Assembly: GCA_041752275.1 (NCBI GenBank)
Contig: JBGSHK010000015.1
Span: 64,641 to 128,640, forward strand
Length of the DNA stretch: 64,000 bases
From: Minisyncoccia bacterium
GTDB taxonomy: Bacteria; Patescibacteriota; Minisyncoccia; Phycocordibacterales; CAIZLB01
Direction of reading: 5' to 3'
Of the stretch, positions 906 through 55,904 are shown one piece after another. The notes under the pieces are model-generated. The model saw only the letters and a list, made by a program, of their open reading frames with translations. It ran no database searches and had not been told where the DNA came from. The stretch's first letter is position 1; the number at the start of each line of letters is the position of its first letter. The translations under genes were made by a program, and so were the position numbers.

Positions 906-997
906 TTGAGCTTTATATTTTTTATGCTTTTTTAGCTTCTCAATCTGAGTAAAATAAAATTCATCCTTTCTTTGGATGATATTTTATTTTACGAAGA

Positions 998-1924
998 TTA
1001 CACCTTCAAATATTTCTTAATAGCCAAGAATGATGATATAGAGCCTAAGACAGAACCTAAAACAATAAGCATAAGTGTTATACTAAAAATATTTTGAGTA
1101 AAGAAACTAAACAAGTTTACACCTGTACCTAACTTTTCTGTCCAGTTACCTGCATAATGCGTTATTGGTAGCAATATAAGAGCGGTAACAATTGCACCTA
1201 CCAAACCATACAATATACCCACAGTGACAAAAGGTGCACGTATATATGTCTCACTAGCTCCAACTAAACGCATAACAGAAACTTCTTCACGGAATATATA
1301 GATAGCAAGTCTAACCGTATTGAAAGTTATAAGTATAGAAACTATAGCGAAGAATATTACAATAAGTAGACCTAATCTGTTTGAAGCATTAATAATTCTG
1401 TTTAAAGAGGCTATAGCTTGTTGATTTTTTTCGGTATAGTTTATTTTATCTATAATATTGTTTTCACCCAAAGCACTTTCTTTATCTTTTAAAAATGTAA
1501 CTATGGTGTCGTACTTGTTTGGATCTGCAGCCTTTACATTTATACTTGCAGGCAATGGGTTATCACCTATCTCAGTTAAAGCTTGTATTGTAGCTTCGTT
1601 ATCTTTATGTCTCTCTTTAAAGTTTTGATATGCTTGATCTTGAGATATGTATTTTACATCTGCTATATCGGGGTTTTTCTTAACATCGTTTGCAAAAGCG
1701 AGTATTGCATCCTCTGTAGCTCCTTTTGTAAAATATATATCTACATCTACTTTGTTTTTTATAGTTTCAAGTGTTGATGATAAAACTACACCTGAAAACA
1801 AAACCATAGTTATAACCGTCAAAGTAACTGTAAGTATAAGTACCGATGCAAGAGAAACTGAACCGTTTCTATAAAAACTTATAACTCCTGATTTTATTGT
1901 TCTTTTTAATTTTGTAAGTATCAT
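998..1924 (-). CDS. ftsX: cell division permease FtsX
   Basis: 308 aa with one N-terminal TM, a large extracytoplasmic loop and 3 C-terminal TMs (FtsX topology); lies immediately downstream of ftsE. Confidence 0.8.
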   Translation of the reverse strand: MILTKLKRTIKSGVISFYRNGSVSLASVLILTVTLTVITMVLFSGVVLSSTLETIKNKVDVDIYFTKGATEDAILAFANDVKKNPDIADVKYISQDQAYQNFKERHKDNEATIQALTEIGDNPLPASINVKAADPNKYDTIVTFLKDKESALGENNIIDKINYTEKNQQAIASLNRIINASNRLGLLIVIFFAIVSILITFNTVRLAIYIFREEVSVMRLVGASETYIRAPFVTVGILYGLVGAIVTALILLPITHYAGNWTEKLGTGVNLFSFFTQNIFSITLMLIVLGSVLGSISSFLAIKKYLKV

Positions 1925-2975: not shown

Positions 2976-3857
2976 TTATGGTAACAAAATAACCCTCAAG
3001 TCTGCAACTATACGGTCATATGATTGTAATGATATAACTGCGTTTTCAATATCACCTGCTTTTAAATGATCTTCTGACACAACTATACTCTTTTCAGCCT
3101 CTACTATAATATCTGTAGTTGATGCATTTTTCTCAAAATCTAATATGTCTTTTTTAGCAGCGATTATTCTATCCTCCACCTCTTTCTCTGTGCTAGTTGA
3201 TATGTTGTTTTTTTCTTTTCTTTCTATATCTACCCTCAAATCTATAGCACTAAAAACTTCTGACTCTACACTTGTTGAAACTTTATATAACTCATCAGCC
3301 TTAAGTGCAGACTCTAGATCAAGTGCTATCTTTTTAGCTTCTGTTATCTTGTCTTCACTTATAAGTGCCGCTACCTGATTTCTGATTTCACGTGAACGAG
3401 ATGATAGTTGGCTAGCCAGTATTTGAGTTTTAACATCTTTTTCAGCAACGTCCTCTGATGCCAAGTTTAGTTTTATCTCTTTTATATCAGCTTGATTTTT
3501 AGATAGATTTGATTTTATCTCATTGCTTCTCTTAAGTTGTTCAAGGTTAGACTTAACTTCGTTTATATCAGACAAAGCTATGCGAGATCTATCAGTGAAC
3601 ACACCTGCGGCTTGTGTACCTATAAATACTATAAGTAGAACTGGTATAGAGTATCTTAAGTATTGTGTGAAATATGTTTTATAAGTATAAAATGGAGACT
3701 TAACAGCTTCAACAACAACTTCTTTTGAAACATCTACTCTATCAAAAACAGATTTTAACATGTCTTTTTTTTCAGACACAGACAAAGACATAGATTCATT
3801 TGGTTTAAATGAACTCAATATGTTTTCTATTCTTTTGTCGTTAATAATGTTTTTCAT
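2976..3857 (-). CDS. membrane-anchored coiled-coil protein, putative anti-sigma factor
   Basis: 293 aa with a single TM (YSIPVLLIVFIGTQAAGVF); overlaps the upstream sigma-factor gene by 17 nt, an arrangement typical of ECF sigma/anti-sigma pairs. Confidence 0.3.
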   Translation of the reverse strand: MKNIINDKRIENILSSFKPNESMSLSVSEKKDMLKSVFDRVDVSKEVVVEAVKSPFYTYKTYFTQYLRYSIPVLLIVFIGTQAAGVFTDRSRIALSDINEVKSNLEQLKRSNEIKSNLSKNQADIKEIKLNLASEDVAEKDVKTQILASQLSSRSREIRNQVAALISEDKITEAKKIALDLESALKADELYKVSTSVESEVFSAIDLRVDIERKEKNNISTSTEKEVEDRIIAAKKDILDFEKNASTTDIIVEAEKSIVVSEDHLKAGDIENAVISLQSYDRIVADLRVILLP

Positions 3858-6689: not shown

Positions 6690-7388
6690 TTATTTCAATG
6701 AGTATTTGCTCCATCGTCTTTCCCCTGTCTTTTTGAGTGTTCCTGATAGAACAAGAGATGTTAACTCTCTTTGTATAGTCTTTGAACTTATACCTTTTAT
6801 AGACTCTATAAACTCATTTATAGTTACCGCCCCGCGAGCCCTTACTATCTCCAATATCTTCTTTCTTCTCGATCCTATGTCCATAGATATGTTGTTTATT
6901 GTCTTTATGTTCTGAGTATTGTTGTTTATAGTTATATTGGACACCTTTTTCTCAACCTTATCTTCAACAATGAACTCTGCAATTTCTTTATTTTCTATAA
7001 CCATAGGCTTATGGACCTCTCCTGCTGTGTTATTTTCTATATTTAAAACCTTATCTATATATACCTCCTTTCTGTCTTCTGTTTTAGTTAGCTCATGCAA
7101 CTGATTATTGATAGCATTTATTAATAGCTCTGCATTCATCTGTGTTATCAAGTCTATATCACGAGAAAGCTTTATAAGTGAATTTAGTTTCAAAAAACTG
7201 TCTTTTTTATCTGTCTTTTCAACACAAATCACAGCAATTCTTCTTAGAGACATCTTTAAAGGTTCATCCGGCGCAAACAAATCCGTAACTAAATAAATCG
7301 CCTTCGAAATAGCTTCGACTTGAACCTGTCTTTTAATAACCAACTCTGTGTGACCGCTTGATTGATTGTTGTTATTTATACTGTCCAT
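6690..7388 (-). CDS. putative transcriptional regulator with C-terminal winged-helix (DeoR-type) HTH
   Basis: The C-terminus RRKKILEIVRARGAVTINEFIESIKGISSKTIQRELTSLVLSGTLKKTGERRW resembles a DeoR-type HTH; the gene is divergent from ftsK. Start chosen at MDSINNNN. Confidence 0.4.
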   Translation of the reverse strand: MDSINNNNQSSGHTELVIKRQVQVEAISKAIYLVTDLFAPDEPLKMSLRRIAVICVEKTDKKDSFLKLNSLIKLSRDIDLITQMNAELLINAINNQLHELTKTEDRKEVYIDKVLNIENNTAGEVHKPMVIENKEIAEFIVEDKVEKKVSNITINNNTQNIKTINNISMDIGSRRKKILEIVRARGAVTINEFIESIKGISSKTIQRELTSLVLSGTLKKTGERRWSKYSLK

Positions 7389-35649: not shown

Positions 35650-35650
35650 T

Positions 35651-35733
35651 TGCGCTGGGGGAGATTTGAACTCCCACACCCTTGCGGGCGCTACCACTAA
35701 AAGGTAGTAAGTCTACCTTTTCATTACCTGCGC
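35651..35733 (-). tRNA. type-II (long variable arm) Leu-like tRNA with anticodon UUA (would read UAA/UAG); possible suppressor or pseudo-tRNA
   Basis: Minus strand: acceptor GCGCAGG/CCAGCGC (one A-A mismatch), discriminator A73, Leu-like D-loop AAAAGGTAGA, anticodon stem CTACC/GGTAG with loop TTTTAGT (U33, anticodon 34-36 = TTA), long variable arm CGCCC-GCAA-GGGTG, canonical T-arm GGGAG-TTCAAAT-CTCCC. Confidence 0.45.
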
Positions 35734-35800
35734 ATAGTATAAGGTTACTATAGTTGTATTTGTATATCAAATAGGAATATGATATATTATTTTTACATAA

Positions 35801-35873
35801 GCGCGATTAGCTCAGTTGGTAGAGCAACTCATTTACACTGAGAAGGTCGGGGGTTCAAGTCCCTCATCGCGCA
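35801..35873 (+). tRNA. tRNA-Val (anticodon UAC)
   Basis: Acceptor GCGCGAT/ATCGCGC, D-arm GCTC-AGTTGGTA-GAGC, anticodon loop TTTACAC, T-arm GGGGG-TTCAAGT-CCCTC, discriminator A. Confidence 0.8.
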
Positions 35874-35880
35874 CAAACAG

Positions 35881-35909
35881 AAAAAAGCCCACTAGGGCTT
35901 TTTTATTTT
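35881..35909 (+). terminator. rho-independent terminator after tRNA-Val (a second hairpin at 35918-35942)
   Basis: aaaaaagccc-acta-gggctttttt, followed by gcgcc-cgac-ggcgc-tttt. Confidence 0.55.
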
Positions 35910-35944
35910 GAAGCGATAAAAAGCGCCCGACGGCGCTTTTGTGT

Positions 35945-36030
35945 GGGACTTGAAAAGCTTTCCCTTATTTTTGAGAATCTTGATTCGAAAAAATGGGAAA
36001 GGTATACTGACCGTGTAACGGTCAAGTCCC
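35945..36030 (+). repeat. structured repeat element, copy A (T-arm-mimicking closing helix specific for tRNA-Val)
   Basis: gggacttga...tcaagtccc closing helix; the 3' strand equals the T-loop/T-stem of tRNA-Val 75 nt upstream. Conserved core CGAAAAGC-stem-TTTTGAG-...-CGAAAAA-stem-GGTATACTGA-hairpin(TGTAA loop). Confidence 0.6.
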
Positions 36031-36099
36031 CAATAAAGTACAAAAAAACAGAGCTCCTGAGAGCTCCATTTTTCTAAGTTAAAATATTTTCTCTAATAT

Positions 36100-39746: not shown

Positions 39747-40110
39747 TGTATGTAATTATATTCTCGAAAAATATAAAATCAAATTTCTTTAGAACTGTGA
39801 TATAGGTTTAAACTAAGTCAATGAAATTCGGAATTATGATTATAATTTACAATAAAAAATATGTTTTAAGAGGATAAAATTTGTAACTTAAAAACAGAGC
39901 TTTTCTTTATCTCACTCAAGTTTTAGTTCAGAAAATATGAATGAAGTAGAAAAAGGCTTGACGGAAGACCTTTAAGTCTGAGTCAGAAGAAAATCCCCAG
40001 CTCCTAGAGATGGGGATTATTCTGACCTTTTTCGTATGAATGAATATTTTTGTGCGACTTATATTCCTTATGAGCGTTAGCGAATTAGGAATATAGAAGT
40101 GCCCTTGTGG

Positions 40111-43526: not shown

Positions 43527-43613
43527 GGAGGAGTGGCAGAGAGGTCGATTGCACCTGTCTTGAAAACAGGAGGGCTCTAACGGGTCCCGTGAGTTCGAAT
43601 CTCACCTCCTCCG
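43527..43613 (+). tRNA. tRNA-Ser (anticodon UGA)
   Basis: Acceptor GGAGGAG/CTCCTCC, anticodon stem CCTGT/ACAGG with loop CTTGAAA, long variable arm, T-arm GTGAG-TTCGAAT-CTCAC, discriminator G. Confidence 0.8.
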
Positions 43614-45071
43614 CACGGTAAGACTATCAGCTTGATTTAACATCAAATTGAATGGAGAACGCAAGGTAAAACCTAGCGTTTTTTCATTTAATACACAGTT
43701 CTGAAGTAAGAAACCAAGAAATTGGCGCTTTTCTTCAACTTCGGAACTAATAAATATCTCTTTTGCTCGTTTTGCTATATTTAATGTTGTATTTGCTGTG
43801 ATATAGAAGTGTTCGTCCGCATCAGAGTGGTCCTTCATTTGGTCCAACACATCAGCTTGTTTCTCTTTGTACTCTTTCAAAAAGCTGTCATACATTTCAT
43901 CCGTAATACGACCGTCGAGCTTATCTTCATACATCTTCTTTATCCTTGCTTCATATTTATCGTGTTCAGTCTTGAGTGAGTTTATGCTTTGTCGGTAAAA
44001 TCTATTTTCATTTTCACCAATCTCCTTCAACGCTTCGGTAATTTCACCAATCTTTTTATCTGAAAGCTTGAAATCGAGCGCTTTGTAAACCTGCTCCAAA
44101 AGCATATCTTCAGTTACAGAGACCCTTTTACAGTCTTTGTACCCTGAACAACTGTAGTAGGTATATTTTTCTTTTTTAAGTTGCCCACCAATTACACCTC
44201 CACATTTAGCACATACAATAAGACCCCTAAAGATAAAAGGTTTTGAAGCATACTTTGTGGGAACTTTATTATGTCTTTCCATTACCTCTTGGCATTTATC
44301 AAACAGTTCCTTTGAAATAATTGGTTTATAAGCATGTCTGTACCGTAAATCATGAGTTCTTGAGTAGGCATAACCATAGTAAAAACTATCATTCAATATC
44401 TTGAATATCATAGCTTGATTTACCCTTTCATTGACCCTGCTTCTAAAACCTATTTTATACATTCTATCAGCGAGGGTTTTTACAGACACATCACCTTTCG
44501 CATATTCCTCAAAGATACGAACTATGAAATGAGCCTTGTCATCAGGCACCACATCAATCCTACGCATCCTTAATGGATTATCATTATACAAACTCTTGTA
44601 GCCAATGGCTGGCATTCCCGTAATTTCACCATCCTCTCTCATTTTGTCGTGTTTTCGTTTAAGGTTATCACTCAATTGCAACACATAACTTTTAGCAAAC
44701 ATAACGCCCATATCCCAACGCAATATATCAGCACTGTTTGACTTCTTATTTATAACAAGATTTTCTCTATAAAAATGCAACTCAACTTTATCTTCCCTTC
44801 GTAACTCGTCAAAGATAACACTCTCGCGAAAACTTCTTTGTAATCGGTCTACAGTATCCACAACAACAGCTATGGTTTCTTTTGACTTTTTTATTATTTC
44901 AATAATTTCTTGAAACTTTATTCTATACCCTTTCGTTGAACTTTCTTTCAGTTTAAATGTTTTCCACTCTTCCAAACCCTTACCTTTAACATAATCAAGG
45001 ATACGGGACAGCTGTGCATCATTACTATCTTGGTTTTTGTCACTTTCTCTGGCTAAAATAATTGCTTTCAT
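43602..45071 (-). CDS. large serine recombinase (phage-integrase-type resolvase/recombinase with zinc ribbon)
   Basis: N-terminal resolvase domain with a catalytic Ser (AIILARESDKNQDS), a central recombinase domain and a C-terminal Cys-rich zinc ribbon (CAKCGGVIGG...YYSCSGYKDC); the stop codon overlaps the tRNA-Ser 3' end by 12 nt. Confidence 0.85.
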   Translation of the reverse strand: MKAIILARESDKNQDSNDAQLSRILDYVKGKGLEEWKTFKLKESSTKGYRIKFQEIIEIIKKSKETIAVVVDTVDRLQRSFRESVIFDELRREDKVELHFYRENLVINKKSNSADILRWDMGVMFAKSYVLQLSDNLKRKHDKMREDGEITGMPAIGYKSLYNDNPLRMRRIDVVPDDKAHFIVRIFEEYAKGDVSVKTLADRMYKIGFRSRVNERVNQAMIFKILNDSFYYGYAYSRTHDLRYRHAYKPIISKELFDKCQEVMERHNKVPTKYASKPFIFRGLIVCAKCGGVIGGQLKKEKYTYYSCSGYKDCKRVSVTEDMLLEQVYKALDFKLSDKKIGEITEALKEIGENENRFYRQSINSLKTEHDKYEARIKKMYEDKLDGRITDEMYDSFLKEYKEKQADVLDQMKDHSDADEHFYITANTTLNIAKRAKEIFISSEVEEKRQFLGFLLQNCVLNEKTLGFTLRSPFNLMLNQADSLTVRRR

Positions 45072-45535
45072 TTGAATAGTGATATTATTGAAATAATAAT
45101 TGCAATTAAAGATAAAATCAGCGTTACAGGATTTTCTGTTGCTTTGTTTTTAAAATACTCCCAACCACTTTTTCCTTTAGTTGTTAATACAATACTTTCG
45201 GTTAACTCTTCAGTTACATCATAACTAAAGCTTGAGCCATTTTTTGTTTCTATTACTGGAAATGTTTTTTGAGTGCCAATAACTATTAAACCATCTAATT
45301 CCATTCTTTTTAATTCAAACATTATTTCATTTTTCCAACTCAACTCAAAAATACCATCAGGAGAATATACGGGGTATTTATCATCATATTTTTTTATGAT
45401 AAACCCATAATCAGGAAAAACTAAAGGGTCTTCAGATATAGATTGGTATTCTTCAGGGATTTCAAAGAGATATTCACTCCTAGATATTTTACTACCTTCT
45501 AACTCTTTTAATAATTTTATAAGTCTATTCCTCAT
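45068..45535 (-). CDS. hypothetical protein with C-terminal TM, translationally coupled to the recombinase
   Basis: 155 aa; 4-nt overlap with the recombinase start; C-terminal hydrophobic helix. Confidence 0.35.
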   Translation of the reverse strand: MRNRLIKLLKELEGSKISRSEYLFEIPEEYQSISEDPLVFPDYGFIIKKYDDKYPVYSPDGIFELSWKNEIMFELKRMELDGLIVIGTQKTFPVIETKNGSSFSYDVTEELTESIVLTTKGKSGWEYFKNKATENPVTLILSLIAIIISIISLFK

Positions 45536-45543
45536 ATAGCAGT

Positions 45544-45723
45544 TTATTTTGTAGTACTTAATTTATTCAAAAAGGCTTCAAAGTCCGTCTTCTCTATACG
45601 AAACTCTTTGCCTATTTTATATGCTTTTAATTTCTTTGCATCAATGTAACGATAAATAGTCATTATATTGAAGCCTAGCTTTTCTGCTAAATCTTTAGCT
45701 GTGTAGAAGTCTTTTTCTTTCAT
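45544..45723 (-). CDS. excisionase-family/MerR-like HTH DNA-binding protein (putative Xis)
   Basis: 59-aa ORF below the ORF-track cutoff (MKEKDFYTAKDLAEKLGFNIMTIYRYIDAKKLKAYKIGKEFRIEKTDFEAFLNKLSTTK); matches the excisionase-type HTH pattern. Confidence 0.5.
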   Translation of the reverse strand: MKEKDFYTAKDLAEKLGFNIMTIYRYIDAKKLKAYKIGKEFRIEKTDFEAFLNKLSTTK

Positions 45724-45750
45724 AATTTATTTTTATATTATTGTTATTAA

Positions 45751-46905
45751 TTATACTTTACTATTCTTTACATTGCAATCTTCAATGTCGGACAACCTGA
45801 AAGGTTTAAAATCATCAATAGCATCCTTTATTTGTCTTACCCAGTCGTGGTATGTTTTACCAGAAATCTCGTCTAGGAGCTTCAAATCATCAGCTATACG
45901 ATACCAAGTCCTAGATGTTGCGTATCTCTCAACCACAGCCCTAATATCCCTTATTCCCTCCTTACTTAAGACCCTTAGTCCTACTAGATACAGTGCATCT
46001 TTAGGTTTTGTATCAGGTCTGTTTTTAAAGATTGCTTCTAGTGTCTTTTTGGGATTACTTTCAACATCAAATAAGAATAGATTTTTCCCTGTTATTAACT
46101 CATCCCAATAATTTATCAATATCTTCTGACAAACATCCTTCTTGAATATATCAGCAAAAGTTGGATTTTCTTTCAACCCTAAACCCTTAAGAATTGCATT
46201 CATTTTTACCTTTTTTGTAAGTCTAGCTTCAATACGCAACACTTCTTTTTTATCTTTTTTTGTCAAAGTTTCAAAGAGTGATAGTTGAAGTGGATTTTGA
46301 TCCTTATCAATAGCTCGCTTATTACCTTTCTTTAGATCCTGAACTTTATCATACACAACAAGAGAATGAGAGTTTGTATAGAACTGAAGTGAGTGACCGT
46401 TATTCCTAAAACTATCTTTATTAAGATCCATTTTCTGACTTACATCAATCTTATGTAATTCGTTAATAACAAAACCAGAAGTATATCCTTTTGTAAACTC
46501 TATGTTCTTTGAGGGGTGAAAGACCGACACTTTTGCATTTCTTAAATCTTCTAATTTAACGTATACAAACATTTCAGTCATTGCTTCTTGTAGATTTACA
46601 ATTACCCTTTCAAAATCTTTTTCTTGGACCTCGTCAACATTGTTTCCATAAGCCATTTTTGCTACAGAAAACTCTATTTTGAGCGGTATTTCATTACCGT
46701 TTTTTGTCGGTCTTTTCATCAGTGTAATTCTTGGTTTGTAAAAACCTTCTTTCTTATCTGTGGCGGTAGGATTATTTACACATTTAATGAGATAATTTCC
46801 TGACATTTTAAGAATATTCGCATTAGGAGTAAAAGCTTCGGGTCGAAGTCTATAGTAGCCTCTCGGTATCGTTAATATTACTGTGTCTAGCATATACATT
46901 TTCAT
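45751..46905 (-). CDS. putative replication initiation protein (Rep_trans-like)
   Basis: 384 aa; the segment HSLQFYTNSHSLVVYDKVQDL resembles the Rep_trans active-site RxYDK region; the mobile-element context fits. Confidence 0.35.
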   Translation of the reverse strand: MKMYMLDTVILTIPRGYYRLRPEAFTPNANILKMSGNYLIKCVNNPTATDKKEGFYKPRITLMKRPTKNGNEIPLKIEFSVAKMAYGNNVDEVQEKDFERVIVNLQEAMTEMFVYVKLEDLRNAKVSVFHPSKNIEFTKGYTSGFVINELHKIDVSQKMDLNKDSFRNNGHSLQFYTNSHSLVVYDKVQDLKKGNKRAIDKDQNPLQLSLFETLTKKDKKEVLRIEARLTKKVKMNAILKGLGLKENPTFADIFKKDVCQKILINYWDELITGKNLFLFDVESNPKKTLEAIFKNRPDTKPKDALYLVGLRVLSKEGIRDIRAVVERYATSRTWYRIADDLKLLDEISGKTYHDWVRQIKDAIDDFKPFRLSDIEDCNVKNSKV

Positions 46906-47182
46906 TACTTATTTTATTTTTATAAATCAAAACCTCTTCTGCTTTTGTTATAATTGCCTGTTCAATATCCAAAGCAATCTTTCTGTTTATCGGATGAAAA
47001 ACATTGAAGTTTTTACCGTTCAGGTTTTTGGTCGGATAAGTTACTCGATATCCACTTCCATCTAATTTTGTATGAATACCGATTGAGCCAAGATACAGAC
47101 TATTCTCAATAACTAAACTTGCTATAGCTACAAGTCCATTATTTGGCTTTATTGGTATTATTTGTATTTCTGTTATTTTCAT
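46850..47182 (-). CDS. SpoVG-family protein
   Basis: MKITEIQIIPIKPNNGLVAIASLVIENSLYLGSIGIH...FHPINRKIALDIEQAII aligns with SpoVG (AIAS...HPIN) conserved blocks. Confidence 0.55.
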   Translation of the reverse strand: MKITEIQIIPIKPNNGLVAIASLVIENSLYLGSIGIHTKLDGSGYRVTYPTKNLNGKNFNVFHPINRKIALDIEQAIITKAEEVLIYKNKISNENVYARHSNINDTERLL

Positions 47183-47384
47183 ATAGATGTGGATTTACTC
47201 TTTTATCAACCTTCAACAACAATGCGAAAAAACCAAGTAGGTTGTTTCGGTCTATTTCGTTGAGTTCTTTCAACGACCAGTCCTTCTTTATTTCTTTTTT
47301 GTTATTGTTTTCGGACATAAAAAAACCTGTAAGGGTGTCTTACAGATTAATTTAATTGATGTTTACAAAAGTTTGTAAACTTTT

Positions 47385-48959
47385 CTAGGGTTTCAAATAC
47401 TTCTTATTTATGGATATTGATTTAGTAGTAATATCCAGAAAATCCTTGATTTTTGTATCTTGAGCTATGATACTGTTAACCTTTTTACCTGCCTGATAAA
47501 CCTTATTTTCAGAGACCTTTTCGCCAAACTTATAACCCCAATCATCAATTACCTCGTCATTTGCCCATATCTTATTTTCATCCTTGAACAAGGTCCTCAT
47601 CAGCTTATGAGGGTCGCTTTCTTCCTTTTTTGATATAAGTATTTCTTCATTGTTAAATGAAAGTTTACGTGTATTTTCATCAAACGAAAGCGATGACGGG
47701 TTCTTGATTTCTTTTTTTTCCTTACCTTGTTTCAGTCTAATCGTAAACAGAAAACCTCTATCGTATAAATCAAACATCTGTTTTGGACCGTATGAAAAAT
47801 CTTCGATTTCAAGATAGCCATCTTTTTCGAGAGATAACATTGTATGGACAAATAAAAACAAATTAATAGTGTCGTTTTTATTATTTCTGCTTATTTTAAA
47901 AGTATCATTTGTATCATTTCCAATGTATTCTGGTTCAAAATATGGATGACCTATTTCCAAATCATCTCTTTGATACTCTTCATATTTTTCTTGAATATGC
48001 TTTATCAAAATATCCCTTTGTTTTTTAAAACCAAAAAATTGAGTGTGCAATTGCAAAGATAAACCTTCAGAAAAGAAAGTTCCTGTTAAGCCCTTTTTAC
48101 TTAAACCGTGCAAATTATCATTAATGAAAGCTGTAAGATACTCATCTAGATACTTTTCTATTTTATCTGTTTTCTTTATAAATAAACCAAAATTAGTATA
48201 TTCAAAAATCAGTCTTGATAATTTTTGTTGACTATCTTCATGAAGAAAGTTTTCTGCTGTAAAACCACCTTTCTTTAGCTTTTCTCTATTATGTTTATAA
48301 AACATTAATAAAAACTTTTCTATATCTTCTGTATTCCATTTACCGCCGTCATATTCAGGTACTAATTTGTGGACCAACTCAATAAAATCTTCATCAGCTT
48401 GTTTGTCTAGTATTGCATCTCTATATTCTTTTACTGGCTGATGCTCAAGTTCAGAAAACTTACTATTATCAAAATCATCATCTTTTAACATGTTTTCAAG
48501 AAAAGCTCTTTGCTCATTACTCAAGCTACCGTATTTTTCAACATCGTTTCTATTCTCTTCGGTATCTTCAAGATATTCCTTCATTAATCTCCCTGAATAT
48601 TCAGATAAAAAACCTCCCTCAAGCAGACTGTAGTCAGCATCGCCATACACCAAGAAACTTTCTTCGTCGAGTTCTTTTCCTGTATTTAATAGGTAGTTAA
48701 GAATTGTAGGAGACCCTGTTTTGTCATGTATCCTTTGAGTCGATTGCTTAATGGCTTTATTTATATCATCTTCAATTGTTGCAATATCACTAGGATTTTT
48801 TGGTTCAGAGACAAAAACATGCTTACCATCAAGAGTAAAAACATTACTCCATAGTGTTGAAATATGCTTCTTTTTTAGTATCCAATAAAGAATGAAAAGT
48901 TCCTTTTCATTTAGGTAGTTTTTATCTTTGTTTTCTAAATCGATTGTCCAACTGTTCAT
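47385..48959 (-). CDS. hypothetical 524-aa cargo protein of the integrated element
   Basis: Long soluble, acidic protein with no recognisable catalytic motif; the largest gene inside the island. Confidence 0.35.
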   Translation of the reverse strand: MNSWTIDLENKDKNYLNEKELFILYWILKKKHISTLWSNVFTLDGKHVFVSEPKNPSDIATIEDDINKAIKQSTQRIHDKTGSPTILNYLLNTGKELDEESFLVYGDADYSLLEGGFLSEYSGRLMKEYLEDTEENRNDVEKYGSLSNEQRAFLENMLKDDDFDNSKFSELEHQPVKEYRDAILDKQADEDFIELVHKLVPEYDGGKWNTEDIEKFLLMFYKHNREKLKKGGFTAENFLHEDSQQKLSRLIFEYTNFGLFIKKTDKIEKYLDEYLTAFINDNLHGLSKKGLTGTFFSEGLSLQLHTQFFGFKKQRDILIKHIQEKYEEYQRDDLEIGHPYFEPEYIGNDTNDTFKISRNNKNDTINLFLFVHTMLSLEKDGYLEIEDFSYGPKQMFDLYDRGFLFTIRLKQGKEKKEIKNPSSLSFDENTRKLSFNNEEILISKKEESDPHKLMRTLFKDENKIWANDEVIDDWGYKFGEKVSENKVYQAGKKVNSIIAQDTKIKDFLDITTKSISINKKYLKP

Positions 48960-49030
48960 ACGCTTTACTTTACTTTACATTCCAATATAATTCAACGATA
49001 TATAGAAAAAGTTTTAGATTGTTCAATCAA

Positions 49031-49390
49031 TTATTTAACAGTTTTCTTTTTGAAGATTTGGCGTGTCATCAACCCTAATATAACAATACTGAAAAAAACA
49101 CTAATCTGAACATAGTAATTGGTCAGAGTCGCATAACTAGATAAATAAAACACTGCGACAAAAATACAATAATGCCACCATTTTGGCTTAATACTGTTTG
49201 GATTATTCTTACCTTTAGAGTAAAGCAACGCCATTCCCAACATAAGTATGACCATTACAACAATGACACCTAATCCTAATATCTTTTGCGTAGTGACATC
49301 CAACGAGTTACCTTCTAACATTGTTGCCAACGTCGCAATCCATCTGTAGTTTAGAACTATTAATAATATTAGGTAATTTCCCAATGGCAT
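49031..49390 (-). CDS. hypothetical membrane protein (3-4 TM)
   Basis: Hydrophobic profile only. Confidence 0.3.
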   Translation of the reverse strand: MPLGNYLILLIVLNYRWIATLATMLEGNSLDVTTQKILGLGVIVVMVILMLGMALLYSKGKNNPNSIKPKWWHYCIFVAVFYLSSYATLTNYYVQISVFFSIVILGLMTRQIFKKKTVK

Positions 49391-49506
49391 ATCTGTATAA
49401 TATCACCATATTTAATGATTTGCATCAAAATGCACTTTGGTTTACTTTTACTTTGGTATGTATTAAGTTATAATACCATTATTACTTTTAATCATAAAAA
49501 AATATT

Positions 49507-49965
49507 ATGGACACAATCCAAACGCCTAATCAGGCAACACCAATCATTAAAAAAAAATCTATATGGTCAACATTGATATGGATTGGTTACTTTATATCCA
49601 TGCTAGCGACACTTTCTAATTTTTTCCTTTTTCTAACATTAAGAATAACGGATGGTAAGGACATTATAACCTCATCAGATGGTACAAGTATTAGCTTGAA
49701 TGCGTCATTAATAGCCACTGCCATTACTTTAATAATTTATTCAATTTTAACTGTATATTGTATAAAAAGAAAAAAGTCTACCTTAAAACTGTTGCCTGTG
49801 CTTGAGGTTATTTTATATTTTGTAGGTATTGCAAGTGCCATAATAATTTTTCAACTAAATGACTTATCAATGGCATATCTTCTTGGACCGATAATAAGTG
49901 GTTTAATAAGACCAGCAATAGCGATATTTGTTATGTATAAAAACAAAGCTGATTACATTTCGTAA
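49507..49965 (+). CDS. hypothetical membrane protein (4 TM)
   Basis: Hydrophobic profile only. Confidence 0.3.
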   Translation: MDTIQTPNQATPIIKKKSIWSTLIWIGYFISMLATLSNFFLFLTLRITDGKDIITSSDGTSISLNASLIATAITLIIYSILTVYCIKRKKSTLKLLPVLEVILYFVGIASAIIIFQLNDLSMAYLLGPIISGLIRPAIAIFVMYKNKADYIS

Positions 49966-50159
49966 AACTGGCATTATTTTTAAAGCCTATAACAGTATTA
50001 GAACTGTATACGTACCTAAACAGTCGCATATAGTTTTTTTATTCCCAGAAATCCCAATTCTTGCTTAACGGCCGTCCAATTCACAGTTCTGAACGCATCT
50101 ACCCACTCCCGCTATGAGAAAATGAATACATACTTGTTATGTATTCATTTTTGATTATA

Positions 50160-50203
50160 GGAGGAGAGGAGGCCGACAGTTTTGCTTCCGTGTGAGATTC
50201 GAA
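50160..50203 (+). pseudogene. degenerate tRNA-Ser fragment (acceptor/D-region fused to the T-arm 5' half) at the right end of the island
   Basis: ggaggagaggaggccgacag...ccgtgtgagattcgaa versus tRNA-Ser GGAGGAGTGGCAGAGAGGTCGA...CCCGTGAGTTCGAA; the anticodon arm is missing. Confidence 0.45.
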
Positions 50204-50277
50204 AAGCTTTTCTATGTTTTGAGCGCTGTGGTGCGAAAAACGAGAAAAGGTATACTGAAGCTGTAAGCTTCGAATCT
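50195..50277 (+). repeat. structured repeat element, copy B (closing helix agattcgaa/ttcgaatct mimicking the tRNA-Ser T-loop)
   Basis: Same conserved core as copy A (cgaaaagcttttc...ttttgag...cgaaaaa...gagaaaaggtatactga-gaagc-tgtaa-gcttc); inserted in the T-loop position of the degenerate tRNA-Ser fragment. Confidence 0.6.
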
Positions 50278-50296
50278 ATCGTGCTATAATAACCCC

Positions 50297-55450: not shown

Positions 55451-55522
55451 GCTCCCGTCGTTTAATGGATAGGACATGACTTTGCGGAAGTCAAGATCTA
55501 GGTTCGATTCCTAGCAGGAGCA
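55451..55522 (+). tRNA. tRNA-Arg (anticodon GCG, unusual G34), with 3-bp D-stem
   Basis: Acceptor GCTCCCG/CAGGAGC (one mismatch), anticodon stem TGACT/AGTCA with loop TTGCGGA, T-arm CTAGG-TTCGATT-CCTAG, discriminator A. Confidence 0.55.
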
Positions 55523-55566
55523 CAAATTATTACTACATGTGTAAGTTAAAAAATCCGGAGGATTTT

Positions 55567-55667
55567 TAGGAATCGAAAGGGTTATCCTATATTTTCGAGC
55601 AGCTTTGCTGTAAGAAAATAGGAAACCCGTACTGAACTCGTAGAGTTCGATTCCTAGCAGGAACACA
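55567..55667 (+). repeat. structured repeat element, copy C, fused to a partial tRNA-Arg 3'-end copy
   Basis: Closing helix taggaatcgaa/ttcgattccta, then cctagcaggaacaca (T-stem 3' + acceptor 3' + ACA of tRNA-Arg, 1 mismatch); conserved core with covarying stems (gggtta-cct/aggaaaccc, gaactc-gta-gagttc). Confidence 0.6.
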
Positions 55668-55671
55668 AGAG

Positions 55672-55697
55672 AAAAATCACCCTTTGTGGTGATTTTT
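55672..55697 (+). terminator. rho-independent terminator (aaaaatcacc-ctttg-tggtgattttt)
   Basis: Perfect hairpin with a T-run, sitting between repeat copies C and D. Confidence 0.55.
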
Positions 55698-55737
55698 CGA
55701 TTTGTGGTTCTGAGCAAGCAAACTGCTTTGCTTGCGT

Positions 55738-55840
55738 CTAGGAATCGAAAAGTTTTGTGATGTTTTTGAGAATTTGCAAAATTCGAAAAAACCACAAAGG
55801 TGTACTGGTCCTGTAAGGACCGATTCCTAGCAGGAGCACA
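55738..55840 (+). repeat. structured repeat element, copy D, fused to a partial tRNA-Arg 3'-end copy
   Basis: Closing helix ctaggaatcg/cgattcctag, then caggagcaca identical to the tRNA-Arg 3' end; core cgaaaagttttgtg...tttttgag...cgaaaaaa-cacaaaggtgtactgg-tcc-tgtaa-gga. Confidence 0.6.
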
Positions 55841-55845
55841 GTAAG

Positions 55846-55869
55846 AAAAACACCCGAAAGGGTGATTTT
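55846..55869 (+). terminator. rho-independent terminator (aaaaacaccc-gaaa-gggtgatttt)
   Basis: Perfect hairpin with a T-run directly after copy D, upstream of pyrD. Confidence 0.55.
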
Positions 55870-55904
55870 CTGTGCGAGTGGAGTGAGCCGAGTATCTCAA
55901 AATA

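Follow-up and report, generated by a model that had tools for sequence, protein, structure and literature searches.

A Patescibacteria-wide family of folded, gene-less repeats with arms matched to the 3' ends of neighbouring tRNA genes

Introduction

In genomic islands that integrate at tRNA genes, a direct repeat running from the T-loop to the 3' end of the gene is the textbook layout of the attachment (att) sites, as described for the integrase site classes, and the arms of classical att sites are double-stranded sites to which proteins bind. Other mobile elements work through folded or base-pairing forms of their DNA, as is the case for the folded attC sites of integrons, the attachment site of the CTX phage and the base-pairing guides of IS608. 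It is from general knowledge of these last three systems that the closest analogies to the repeats described here are drawn. The repeats were found in a 64,000-nucleotide stretch (the window) of the genome of a Minisyncoccia bacterium of the Patescibacteria (GenBank assembly GCA_041752275.1, contig JBGSHK010000015.1, positions 64,641 to 128,640). An initial annotation reported four copies, A to D, of a structured element whose closing helix copies the T-arm of a nearby tRNA. We found that the four repeats are members of a family that extends across the Patescibacteria and was previously undescribed. Tentatively, and with somewhat less than even confidence, we read them as non-autonomous insertion modules in which target-matched arms surround a folded core.

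To our knowledge no repeat, att site or RNA family joins a conserved fold with both an antisense and a sense copy of the 3' end of a neighbouring gene, and because no known family joins a covarying core with target-specific inverted and direct arms, we rate the repeats as lying outside the known kinds. No description of the family was found in the searchable literature. The nearest papers deal with introns of group I in the tRNA genes of Patescibacteria (PMC13011429) and with TIGR-Tas guide arrays (PMC12045711), and the element is not described in either.

Results and Discussion

Each of the window copies, when folded alone, formed a three-way junction of the kind that the initial annotation had drawn, with energy z-scores of -3.7 to -5.3 against shuffled controls. 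In this core a closing helix (P1) is followed by a long stem (P2) that carries an internal UUUUGAG...CGAAAAA segment and a tandem G.A motif, by the junction sequence G(G)URUACUG and by P3, a short hairpin whose loop is GUA. The 3' strand of P3 continues directly into the 3' strand of P1, leaving a third junction strand of zero length, and the junction strands of what we call the class I core are GAARA(G), URUACUG and none. The unpaired motifs are long and strongly conserved. A covariance model was built from 16 hand-trimmed copies and the window was searched with filters off; exactly four matches were obtained, at the places first described and all on the forward strand (Table 1), with scores of 80.6-103.1 bits, the next best match scoring 14 bits.

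The pairing of the core is well supported by covariation, as had been claimed. An independent MAFFT/RNAalifold run on 16 sequences showed compensatory change at 19 of the 31 pairs, and in an alignment of 49 distinct sequences fitted to the covariance model 28 of the 31 pairs had changed on both sides and 93.6% of the pair cells held standard pairs. None of 500 column shuffles of the 49 sequences reached any of five measures, and sliding the partner columns by 1-3 positions lowered the pairing to 39-57%. It was also argued in the initial annotation that covariation speaks for a functional RNA, and this part may or may not be right. G.U occurs 42 times and A.C 29 times in the pair cells, a wobble asymmetry too weak to show that the folded strand is RNA, and folded single-stranded DNA is possible. 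No Rfam 15 family matched the class I elements, nor those of a second class described below, at the gathering thresholds or with E values up to 10, in the window, its sub-regions and 24 related loci; matches elsewhere in the scanned DNA were to tRNA, rRNA, tmRNA and group I introns only. Thus the core remains unmatched to known RNAs, further copies do exist and covariation is strong, the three points on which the first description could have failed.

The second defining property is the matching of the arms to a neighbouring gene. A tRNA gene lies on the same strand within 400 nt upstream of 32 of 46 copies, while 3.7% of the positions in the same loci would qualify by chance, and copies that were found by the model and fall outside the text pattern obey the rule too, being placed after tRNA-Thr, Gly, Ser, Trp, Lys and Asn. 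The expectation that every copy lies beside a tRNA held for these 32, and tmRNA and rplK (the latter a protein gene) serve as other hosts. In all copies the orientation is that of the host gene. Directly after P3 comes an exact copy of 13-24 nt of the neighbouring tRNA, which starts within the T-loop, at about tRNA position 56, and ends 1-3 nt past the discriminator, so that the T-arm copy first noticed proved to be part of a fuller copy of the tRNA 3' end. In C and D, for which the acceptor 3' strand had already been recognised, the copies of the tRNA-Arg(GCG) 3' end measure 22 nt with one mismatch and 20 nt without any, and both run 2 nt past the discriminator, whereas the sense copies of A and B are decayed beyond about 9 nt.

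Arms were tabulated for 35 tRNA-linked copies, with registers fixed by acceptor and T-stem pairing. The 5' arm (a*) is the reverse complement of tRNA positions 54-65 at 12/12 positions in 15 copies and at 11/12 or better in 22, and the sense copy agrees with positions 57-65 at 9/9 in 16 and with positions 66-75 at 9/10 or better in 15. A further stretch, b*, located upstream of a small hairpin (P0), is the reverse complement of positions 66-75 at no fewer than 8/10 positions in 13 copies, the null expectation being 0.02 per copy. Within the window the 5' arm had been called an exact reverse complement in every copy; it is exact (12/12) in B and D and differs at one position (11/12) in A and C. 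Likewise, the CGAAAAG motif, taken at first to be single-stranded, was found to begin inside the pairing, since its GAA is the end of the antisense arm and lies opposite the TTC of the T-loop. This GAA becomes GAC in two loci (L025 and L033; loci other than the window are numbered with an L) whose tRNA-Asp has the T-loop GTCAGCA, and a T-stem difference between these two genomes is tracked by both the arm and the sense copy. Decay of the arms is roughly symmetric, as is expected after insertion (a* good with a bad sense copy in 6 copies and the converse in 3; b* good with a bad sense copy in 8 and the converse in 5).

A complete unit thus consists, in order, of an optional terminator or spacer, an optional b*, P0, a*, the folded core and the sense tRNA copy. 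As b* complements the tRNA 3' strand, including positions 73-75, and differs from the tRNA's own 5' strand (GTCGACG as against GTCGGCG of the tRNA in L023, and a T opposite A67 in D and L044), the unit is not a decayed tRNA gene. A tRNA pseudogene with an insertion in the T-loop was rejected on the ground that the upstream strand complements the 3' strand and not the tRNA's own 5' strand, and neither ARAGORN nor the Rfam tRNA models made a call on the upstream stretch. Tandem units were seen in the window (C and D) and in L021, L026 and L062, arranged head-to-tail, with the same 20-nt block at the border of every unit.

When one genome per species was scanned with an exact pattern, 36 loci came up; about 30 of these are real, and all of the real ones belong to Patescibacteria (Saccharibacteria, Nomurabacteria, Paceibacterota, Parcubacteria and Lloydbacteria). 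A looser pattern gave 25 further loci from metagenomes, and the model recovered 51 copies at E < 1e-6 in all fetched DNA, which came from public Patescibacteria contigs. In the sampled contigs, which were chosen for bearing a unit, roughly half of the tRNA genes precede one. The pattern scan of viral contigs yielded three matches, all chance hits within coding-like sequence, and the C-D region had no blastn match in phage and plasmid records.

Relatives carrying the same tRNA-Arg(GCG) locus, retrieved through homologues of a 160-aa protein encoded upstream of the tRNA, differ in what they hold at the site of C and D. In two of them (L070, L071) the site is empty and the pyrD ATG is found 3 nt past the tRNA end. 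L044 holds one D-type unit, its sense arm truncated, with pyrD next; one C-type unit is present in L040 and in L043, and a hybrid of a C-type left part and a D-like core in L042, and the window has a C-type unit followed by a D-type unit. Two more (L072, L073) have a terminator, b* (7/7), P0 and a* (12/12) and then a tiny hairpin. Parts that do not derive from the target are re-used at other tRNAs and in different genomes. The spacer and hairpin of the C type (AAATTGTTACGA...AGTTAAAAAA-hairpin-TTTTT) were found at tRNA-Arg, tRNA-Lys and tRNA-Asp, and Arg-GCG, Arg-TCT, Met and Gly share the P0 of the D type (GCAAACTGCTTTGC). In L021, copy b (915-1003, reverse strand) is a chimera of two other copies of the same genome, with a mismatched P2 whose 5' strand matches L002 and whose 3' strand matches copy a of the same locus, and its sense arm copies a different tRNA end, with an encoded CCA. 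Taken together, the variation at one locus and the re-use of non-target parts imply that units are both gained and lost, that they undergo duplication and recombination, and that their arms are matched to each host gene.

Two observations on these relatives deserve separate mention. The arrangement in L072 and L073 (2138-2235) is a 'core-less' version of the unit, with a 15-nt hairpin after the antisense arm and no sense copy. In L070 and L071 (1996-2075) neither a terminator nor a promoter lies between tRNA-Arg(GCG) and pyrD, and with the pyrD start 3 nt after the tRNA this implies that the two are co-transcribed.

Hosts other than neighbouring tRNAs were also identified. In L007 the sense arm copies 14 nt of the tmRNA 3' end, with a 1.7-kb insert between the tmRNA and the unit. 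Four copies (L015, L022, L024, L061) sit between the rplK stop codon and its terminator, and in these the 5' arm is a perfect complement, over 7-12 nt, of the last codons of the rplK of each genome, despite codon differences, while the downstream sense copy is decayed in three of the four. In L020 a class I core abuts a degenerate copy of 5S rRNA, which is perhaps a further host. That second 5S copy (3651-3762, reverse strand) scored 36.8 bits, just below the threshold, and lies about 370 nt from the intact 5S. A leader for the ribosomal proteins L1 or L11 was considered for the rplK copies and rejected, since the terminator comes after the element; in L024 it is contradicted also by the next gene, which reads as thymidylate kinase and not rplA.

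A second class of core was observed between arms of the same kind, 57-90 nt after tRNAs, in L006 (about 3514-3600, forward), L010 (two loci), L019 (about 2364-2480, reverse), L053 and L062 (about 7232-7350, forward). Its consensus reads a*-GAA-(A/C)G(A/C)CGGAG..hairpin..GAG(U/G)CGGGGUCG(A/C)GAG..hairpin..CUCGUGAC-sense copy, and its first stem covaries (GAC...GUC as against GCC...GGC). Composites of the two classes were seen in L010 (2395-2660, forward), in L006 and L055 (after tRNA-Arg-TCT) and in L060 (3879-4080, reverse); in these a class I module (P2, GGUGUACUG, P3) replaces the second hairpin of a class II-like RNA, and the tRNA-matched arms lie further out. Class I matches that start with GCAAGACC and have no closing helix (L017, L020, L027, L032, L046, L054) are probably parts of such larger RNAs.

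The two interchangeable classes in one context bring to mind a viroid-like unit or a small ribozyme, self-cleaving or self-ligating. Once transcribed, it would be cut where P3 meets the sense arm and might be circularised as a rod with paired arms, and the tandem DNA copies would be its templates. Distinct self-cleaving ribozyme classes are known to share contexts, and the three-way junction whose zero-length strand abuts the repeat boundary, as well as the head-to-tail units with a common 20-nt border, would suit this explanation. Nevertheless we consider it improbable. The core is unlike any Rfam ribozyme, no cyclic rotation of its junction strands fits the hammerhead order (CUGANGA, GAA and a one-base cleavage strand), there is no positive evidence and nothing shows cleavage, and a reverse transcriptase is not expected in the phylum, in which group II introns are reported to be absent (PMC13011429).

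Whether the units act as RNA or as DNA bears on the main rival, according to which they are structured RNAs used by the host, co-transcribed in the 3' trailer of a tRNA or the 3' untranslated region (UTR) of rplK, with mobility as a secondary matter of duplication and gene conversion. Two partners would then be open to the 5' arm, namely the 3' half of the tRNA itself and the sense copy downstream; the core would bind a protein or be catalytic, and the role might be in tRNA 3' processing, quality control or regulation, or that of a stable small RNA on a scaffold resembling a tRNA minihelix. Several features point to RNA, namely the orientation shared with the host gene in all copies, the lack of a strong terminator between tRNA and element in 22 of 32 copies, the rplK copies lying within the transcript and the conserved unpaired motifs together with the strong covariation. 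The second core class and the nested composites, which share their arms, are what modular RNAs would show. Further in its favour, the 5' arm tracks the host sequence (the GAC facing the GTC T-loop and the T-stem difference in L025 and L033), the rplK arms are perfect while their sense copies are decayed, and the 5' arm of B is complementary to tRNA-Ser at 19/19 positions despite a distance of 6.6 kb.

Other features point to DNA. No promoter was predicted in the C-D region, A, C and D are bracketed by bidirectional terminators, the wobble asymmetry is weak, with G.U only mildly above A.C, and the layout is like that of an integration product at a tRNA gene. A trailer RNA would moreover be dispensable at the tRNA-Arg(GCG) locus, which is empty in a relative and varies in content among close relatives; the chimeric copy in L021 has a broken stem, arm decay is roughly symmetric, and an antisense arm directed at a folded tRNA has no obvious benefit. 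We therefore regard the trailer RNA as a genuine but unlikely possibility. The conserved GGTATACTG was considered as a -10 promoter box and rejected; TATACT was flagged in copy A, and most copies have TGTACT, without the key A.

A riboswitch or leader controlling the downstream gene (EamA after B, pyrD after D) was the least credible of the explanations and is effectively refuted by the context statistics. It is true that B and D stand upstream of genes on the same strand and that a three-way junction with conserved junction bases is in keeping with such a role. However, the downstream genes differ at every locus or are convergent, as is the gene that copy A faces, and form no coherent set, whereas the upstream tRNA is constant (32/46); the promoter-like boxes for EamA and pyrD lie 3' of the elements, and the arms copy the upstream gene.

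Copy B matches tRNA-Ser, as was proposed at the outset, even though this tRNA is 6.6 kb away. Because a 6.5-kb element with a large serine recombinase sits between them, B looks like an ordinary unit that was pushed away by a later insertion. The last codons of the recombinase gene, at its 3' end, overlap the 3' end of tRNA-Ser, and the element also bears a SpoVG-like gene and several genes without a Pfam match; the covariance model found no core inside it, and it is context that lies outside the repeat family. Ahead of the left part of B the tRNA-Ser 3' end may, on a tentative reading, be present a third time in decayed form; a search for a second tRNA-Ser 3' copy with up to 3 mismatches found none. 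Islands are found between host gene and element in L007 as well and probably in L004.

These islands, and the direct repeat from T-loop to 3' end that is the att arrangement of tRNA-integrating islands, raise the question of whether the units are scars of conventional islands, that is, the leftover attR side (a P arm and the displaced tRNA 3' end) after the cargo was deleted. We find this very improbable. Double-stranded protein-binding arms would not give compensatory changes in 28 of 31 pairs, the inverted target copy has no place in a classical att site, and the units keep a regular size and layout throughout the diversity of the phylum. The islands that were seen lack the core and have the gene end on their flank a third time, decayed (tentatively so at B), and so look like separate insertions. 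The proposal in the initial annotation that the repeats are an att-adjacent module of integrating elements was not upheld, as most copies are integrase-free units of about 150 nt and the integrase element in the window is core-less and appears to have displaced B.

Its other proposal, a mobile element aimed at the T-loops of tRNAs, agrees in outline with the T-loop-to-end repeat, the tandem copies, the empty and filled locus and the re-used parts, with either RNA or single-stranded DNA as the possible acting form. In the scheme that we tentatively favour, gene-less modules of about 120-180 nt would settle at the 3' ends of tRNA genes, less often at those of tmRNA or rplK and perhaps of 5S rRNA. 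Entry would take place at the conserved block from T-loop to 3' end, and the tRNA would stay undamaged because this block ends up on both sides. The arms would keep the core folded as a three-way junction, within a single strand that imitates the double-stranded target, and this folded form would be what a recombinase or transposase acting in trans recognises. After insertion the arms would decay unless renewed. The best-supported description of the architecture, the tight link to tRNA 3' ends, the gain, loss and rearrangement among relatives and the re-use of non-target parts is that of an insertion module without genes, which homes to the conserved 3' ends of genes and keeps these genes intact; tmRNA and the 3' end of a protein gene such as rplK are classic integration targets.

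Compared with the described systems, the units share features with several and agree with none. Like the attL/attR sites of islands and prophages at the T-loop sublocation of tRNA and tmRNA genes, and like the integrase-less elements mobilised in cis, they have a direct repeat from the T-loop to past the 3' end with the gene left intact, exact over 13-24 nt and flanking the inserted DNA, they accumulate in tandem beside tRNAs, and they also use tmRNA and protein-gene 3' ends. Unlike these, the units measure 120-180 nt, commonly about 150 nt, have neither an open reading frame (ORF) nor an integrase, the only nearby integrase being in the separate core-less 6.5-kb element, and add an inverted target copy and a covarying folded core. 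With the integron attC sites and the attP(+) hairpin of the CTX phage they share a structure that is kept while the stem sequence varies, inverted repeats that form a stem mimicking a double-stranded site, and a place in arrays beside a fixed entry site. Here, however, the GTTRRRY/RYYYAAC box is lacking and neither intI nor attI was noticed, and in place of the R''/R' boxes of attC the closing helix is made of the complement and the copy of the neighbouring tRNA's T-loop and T-stem and varies by locus. The stem sequence follows the individual target and not a recombinase, the 'loop' is a large conserved three-way junction, and the single-stranded DNA form of the units is one that we only infer. 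No tyrosine recombinase was noticed beside any copy, in neighbourhoods only, whole genomes not having been searched.

The IS200/IS605 elements and their miniature derivatives (PATEs) resemble the units in being small, strand-specific and rich in hairpins, in having an internal segment that pairs with the flanking target and in inserting next to the target and not within it. Their guides, however, are 4-5 nt long and their ends constant, whereas the units match 12-22 nt and repeat the target at the far end. In the units P0 and P3 stand near the two ends, and P0 is conserved within subtypes; no TnpA was seen, although no search was aimed at it. REP/REPIN sequences and repeats of the miniature inverted-repeat transposable element (MITE) type (Correia, RUP) are likewise short, gene-less and structured, lie near gene ends and terminators and occur many times per genome. 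Their terminal repeats are constant, while in the units it is the middle that is conserved and the arms that vary with the host gene.

Among RNA systems, plant dicistronic tRNA-snoRNA genes, small RNAs from 3' trailers and tRNA-scaffolded RNAs also place a structured element directly after a tRNA in the same orientation, and release by tRNA-processing enzymes is possible for the units. The D-type arms form an acceptor-like and a T-stem-like stem, as in a tRNA scaffold, but the arm upstream of P0 complements the tRNA 3' strand (including 73-75), there is no copy of the 5' strand, and many units do without this arm. The internal guide sequence of group I introns (P1/P10) is similar in that a 5' segment is antisense to a continuous host stretch that also flanks the element; the units differ in their core of 70-90 nt without group I features and in that the host gene is already complete upstream.

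Several points weigh against reading the units as insertion modules. No recombinase or transposase was found associated with them, although no genome-wide search was made, no circular or excised form was seen, and we know of no mechanism by which a new target would be copied both in inverted and in direct orientation. The b* runs of 8-10 nt cannot arise by chance, and the copies that have no strong terminator between them and the tRNA, about two-thirds of the total, are probably co-transcribed with it. The conserved unpaired motifs, the two or more unrelated core classes and the nested composites look more like a functional RNA than a recombination site. Since the rplK arms are perfect although the codons differ and three of the four sense copies are decayed, they suggest that selection, or templated correction, acts on how the arm pairs with its host gene. 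Even without any function, an antisense arm could be kept matched to its host by templated correction within quasi-palindromes.

The coordinates of the window features are given in Table 1. After the sense arm of B a promoter-like box (TGcTATAAT) precedes the EamA gene, which was assigned by Pfam.

Table 1. Positions of the repeat copies, their parts and the adjoining genes in the window.
Feature	Positions	Strand	Match or basis
tRNA-Val(UAC), host of copy A	35801..35873	+	ARAGORN; Rfam tRNA 70.4 bits
Unit A left part, with AGCGAT complementary to acceptor 3' strand	35881..35940	+	terminator scan; sequence reading
Unit A bidirectional terminator-like hairpin	35881-35904
Unit A P0	35919-35940
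Copy A 5' arm GTGGGACTTGAA	35943-35954		complement of tRNA-Val 54-65
Copy A, class I core with closing helix	35944..36030	+	103.1 bits; fold z -4.99
Copy A sense arm TCAAGTCCCC	36022-36031		decayed further on
tRNA-Ser, host of copy B	43527-43613
Integrated element between tRNA-Ser and copy B	43602..50080	-	ORFs; Pfam
Large serine recombinase gene	43602-45071		Pfam Resolvase + Recombinase + Zn_ribbon_recom
Possible decayed copy of tRNA-Ser 3' end	~50085-50113		tentative, sequence reading
Unit B left part	50085..50189	+	sequence reading
Unit B terminator-like hairpin	~50117-50152
Unit B GGAGGAG	50160-50166		complementary to tRNA-Ser acceptor 3' strand
Unit B P0	50168-50189
Copy B 5' arm GTGAGATTCGAA	50192-50203		complement of tRNA-Ser 54-65
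Copy B core	50193..50278	+	80.6 bits; arm table
Copy B sense arm, reduced to TTCGAATCT	50269-50277
EamA gene, ATG	50297		Pfam
tRNA-Arg(GCG), host of copies C and D	55451..55522	+
Unit C (C-type)	55526..55698	+	90.5 bits; repeat; terminator
Unit C spacer	55526-55547
Unit C terminator-like P0 with A and T tracts	55548-55567
Unit C 5' arm TTAGGAATCGAA	55566-55577
Unit C core	55567-55655	+
Unit C tRNA 3'-end copy	55646-55667
Unit C terminator	55671-55698
Unit D (D-type)	55704..55892	+	99.8 bits; comparison with L044
Unit D segment GTGGTTCTG	55704-55712		pairs with tRNA positions 66-74
Unit D P0 GCAAGCAAACTGCTTTGCTTGC	55714-55735
Unit D 5' arm CTAGGAATCGAA	55738-55749
Unit D core	55739-55828	+
Unit D tRNA 3'-end copy	55821-55840
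Unit D terminator	55851-55864
Remnant of left part of a further unit	55870-55892

Some further features were recorded in passing. On the reverse strand of the window ARAGORN called an 85-nt tRNA with anticodon UUA ('Stop') at 35650-35734, overlapping a listed ORF and absent from the Rfam tRNA matches at the gathering score, which could be a suppressor tRNA or a false call. The tRNA-Arg(TCT) at 40040-40110, also on the reverse strand, has no class I unit and is followed instead by a conserved trailer, CCACAAGGGCACTTCTATATTCCTAAT..GGAATATAAG, that was seen as well after the displaced tRNA 3' end in L021, after copy b. Group I intron matches were found in L026 (2021-2291), L033 (6857-7101) and L020 (4831-5582), none of them on the elements; the match in L026 is probably an intron-containing tRNA, as three tandem units follow it closely and ARAGORN calls no tRNA there. 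In L060 (3370-3770, forward) a strong match to models of the permuted (two-piece, alpha-type) tmRNA lies beside the tRNA-Arg with a composite unit.

Conclusions

Patescibacteria genomes are tiny and have little room for junk. The core of the units is strongly structured and is shared throughout the phylum. If the units are mobile, they would represent homing to conserved gene ends by base pairing with no gene carried, and if they are host RNAs they would hint at a further layer of tRNA biology in a major and poorly understood part of the bacterial tree. A more doubtful idea than either is that the arms serve as a base-pairing address, either of an element free of protein genes or of interchangeable ribozyme-like cores. 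With an antisense guide of 12-22 nt and the sense copy, the element would recognise a conserved gene end on both of its strands and insert next to it, or tRNA 3' halves would be exchanged or supplied at the RNA level, and the address would be rewritten for each host by a templated mechanism not described so far. Were this so, the units would belong to a guide-directed system of mobility or repair of a new kind, restricted to Patescibacteria with their reduced genomes. The units account for 'extra' tRNA 3' fragments and mark sites of genome rearrangement, and as candidates for new functional RNA folds their two or more core classes lend themselves to direct tests in vitro.

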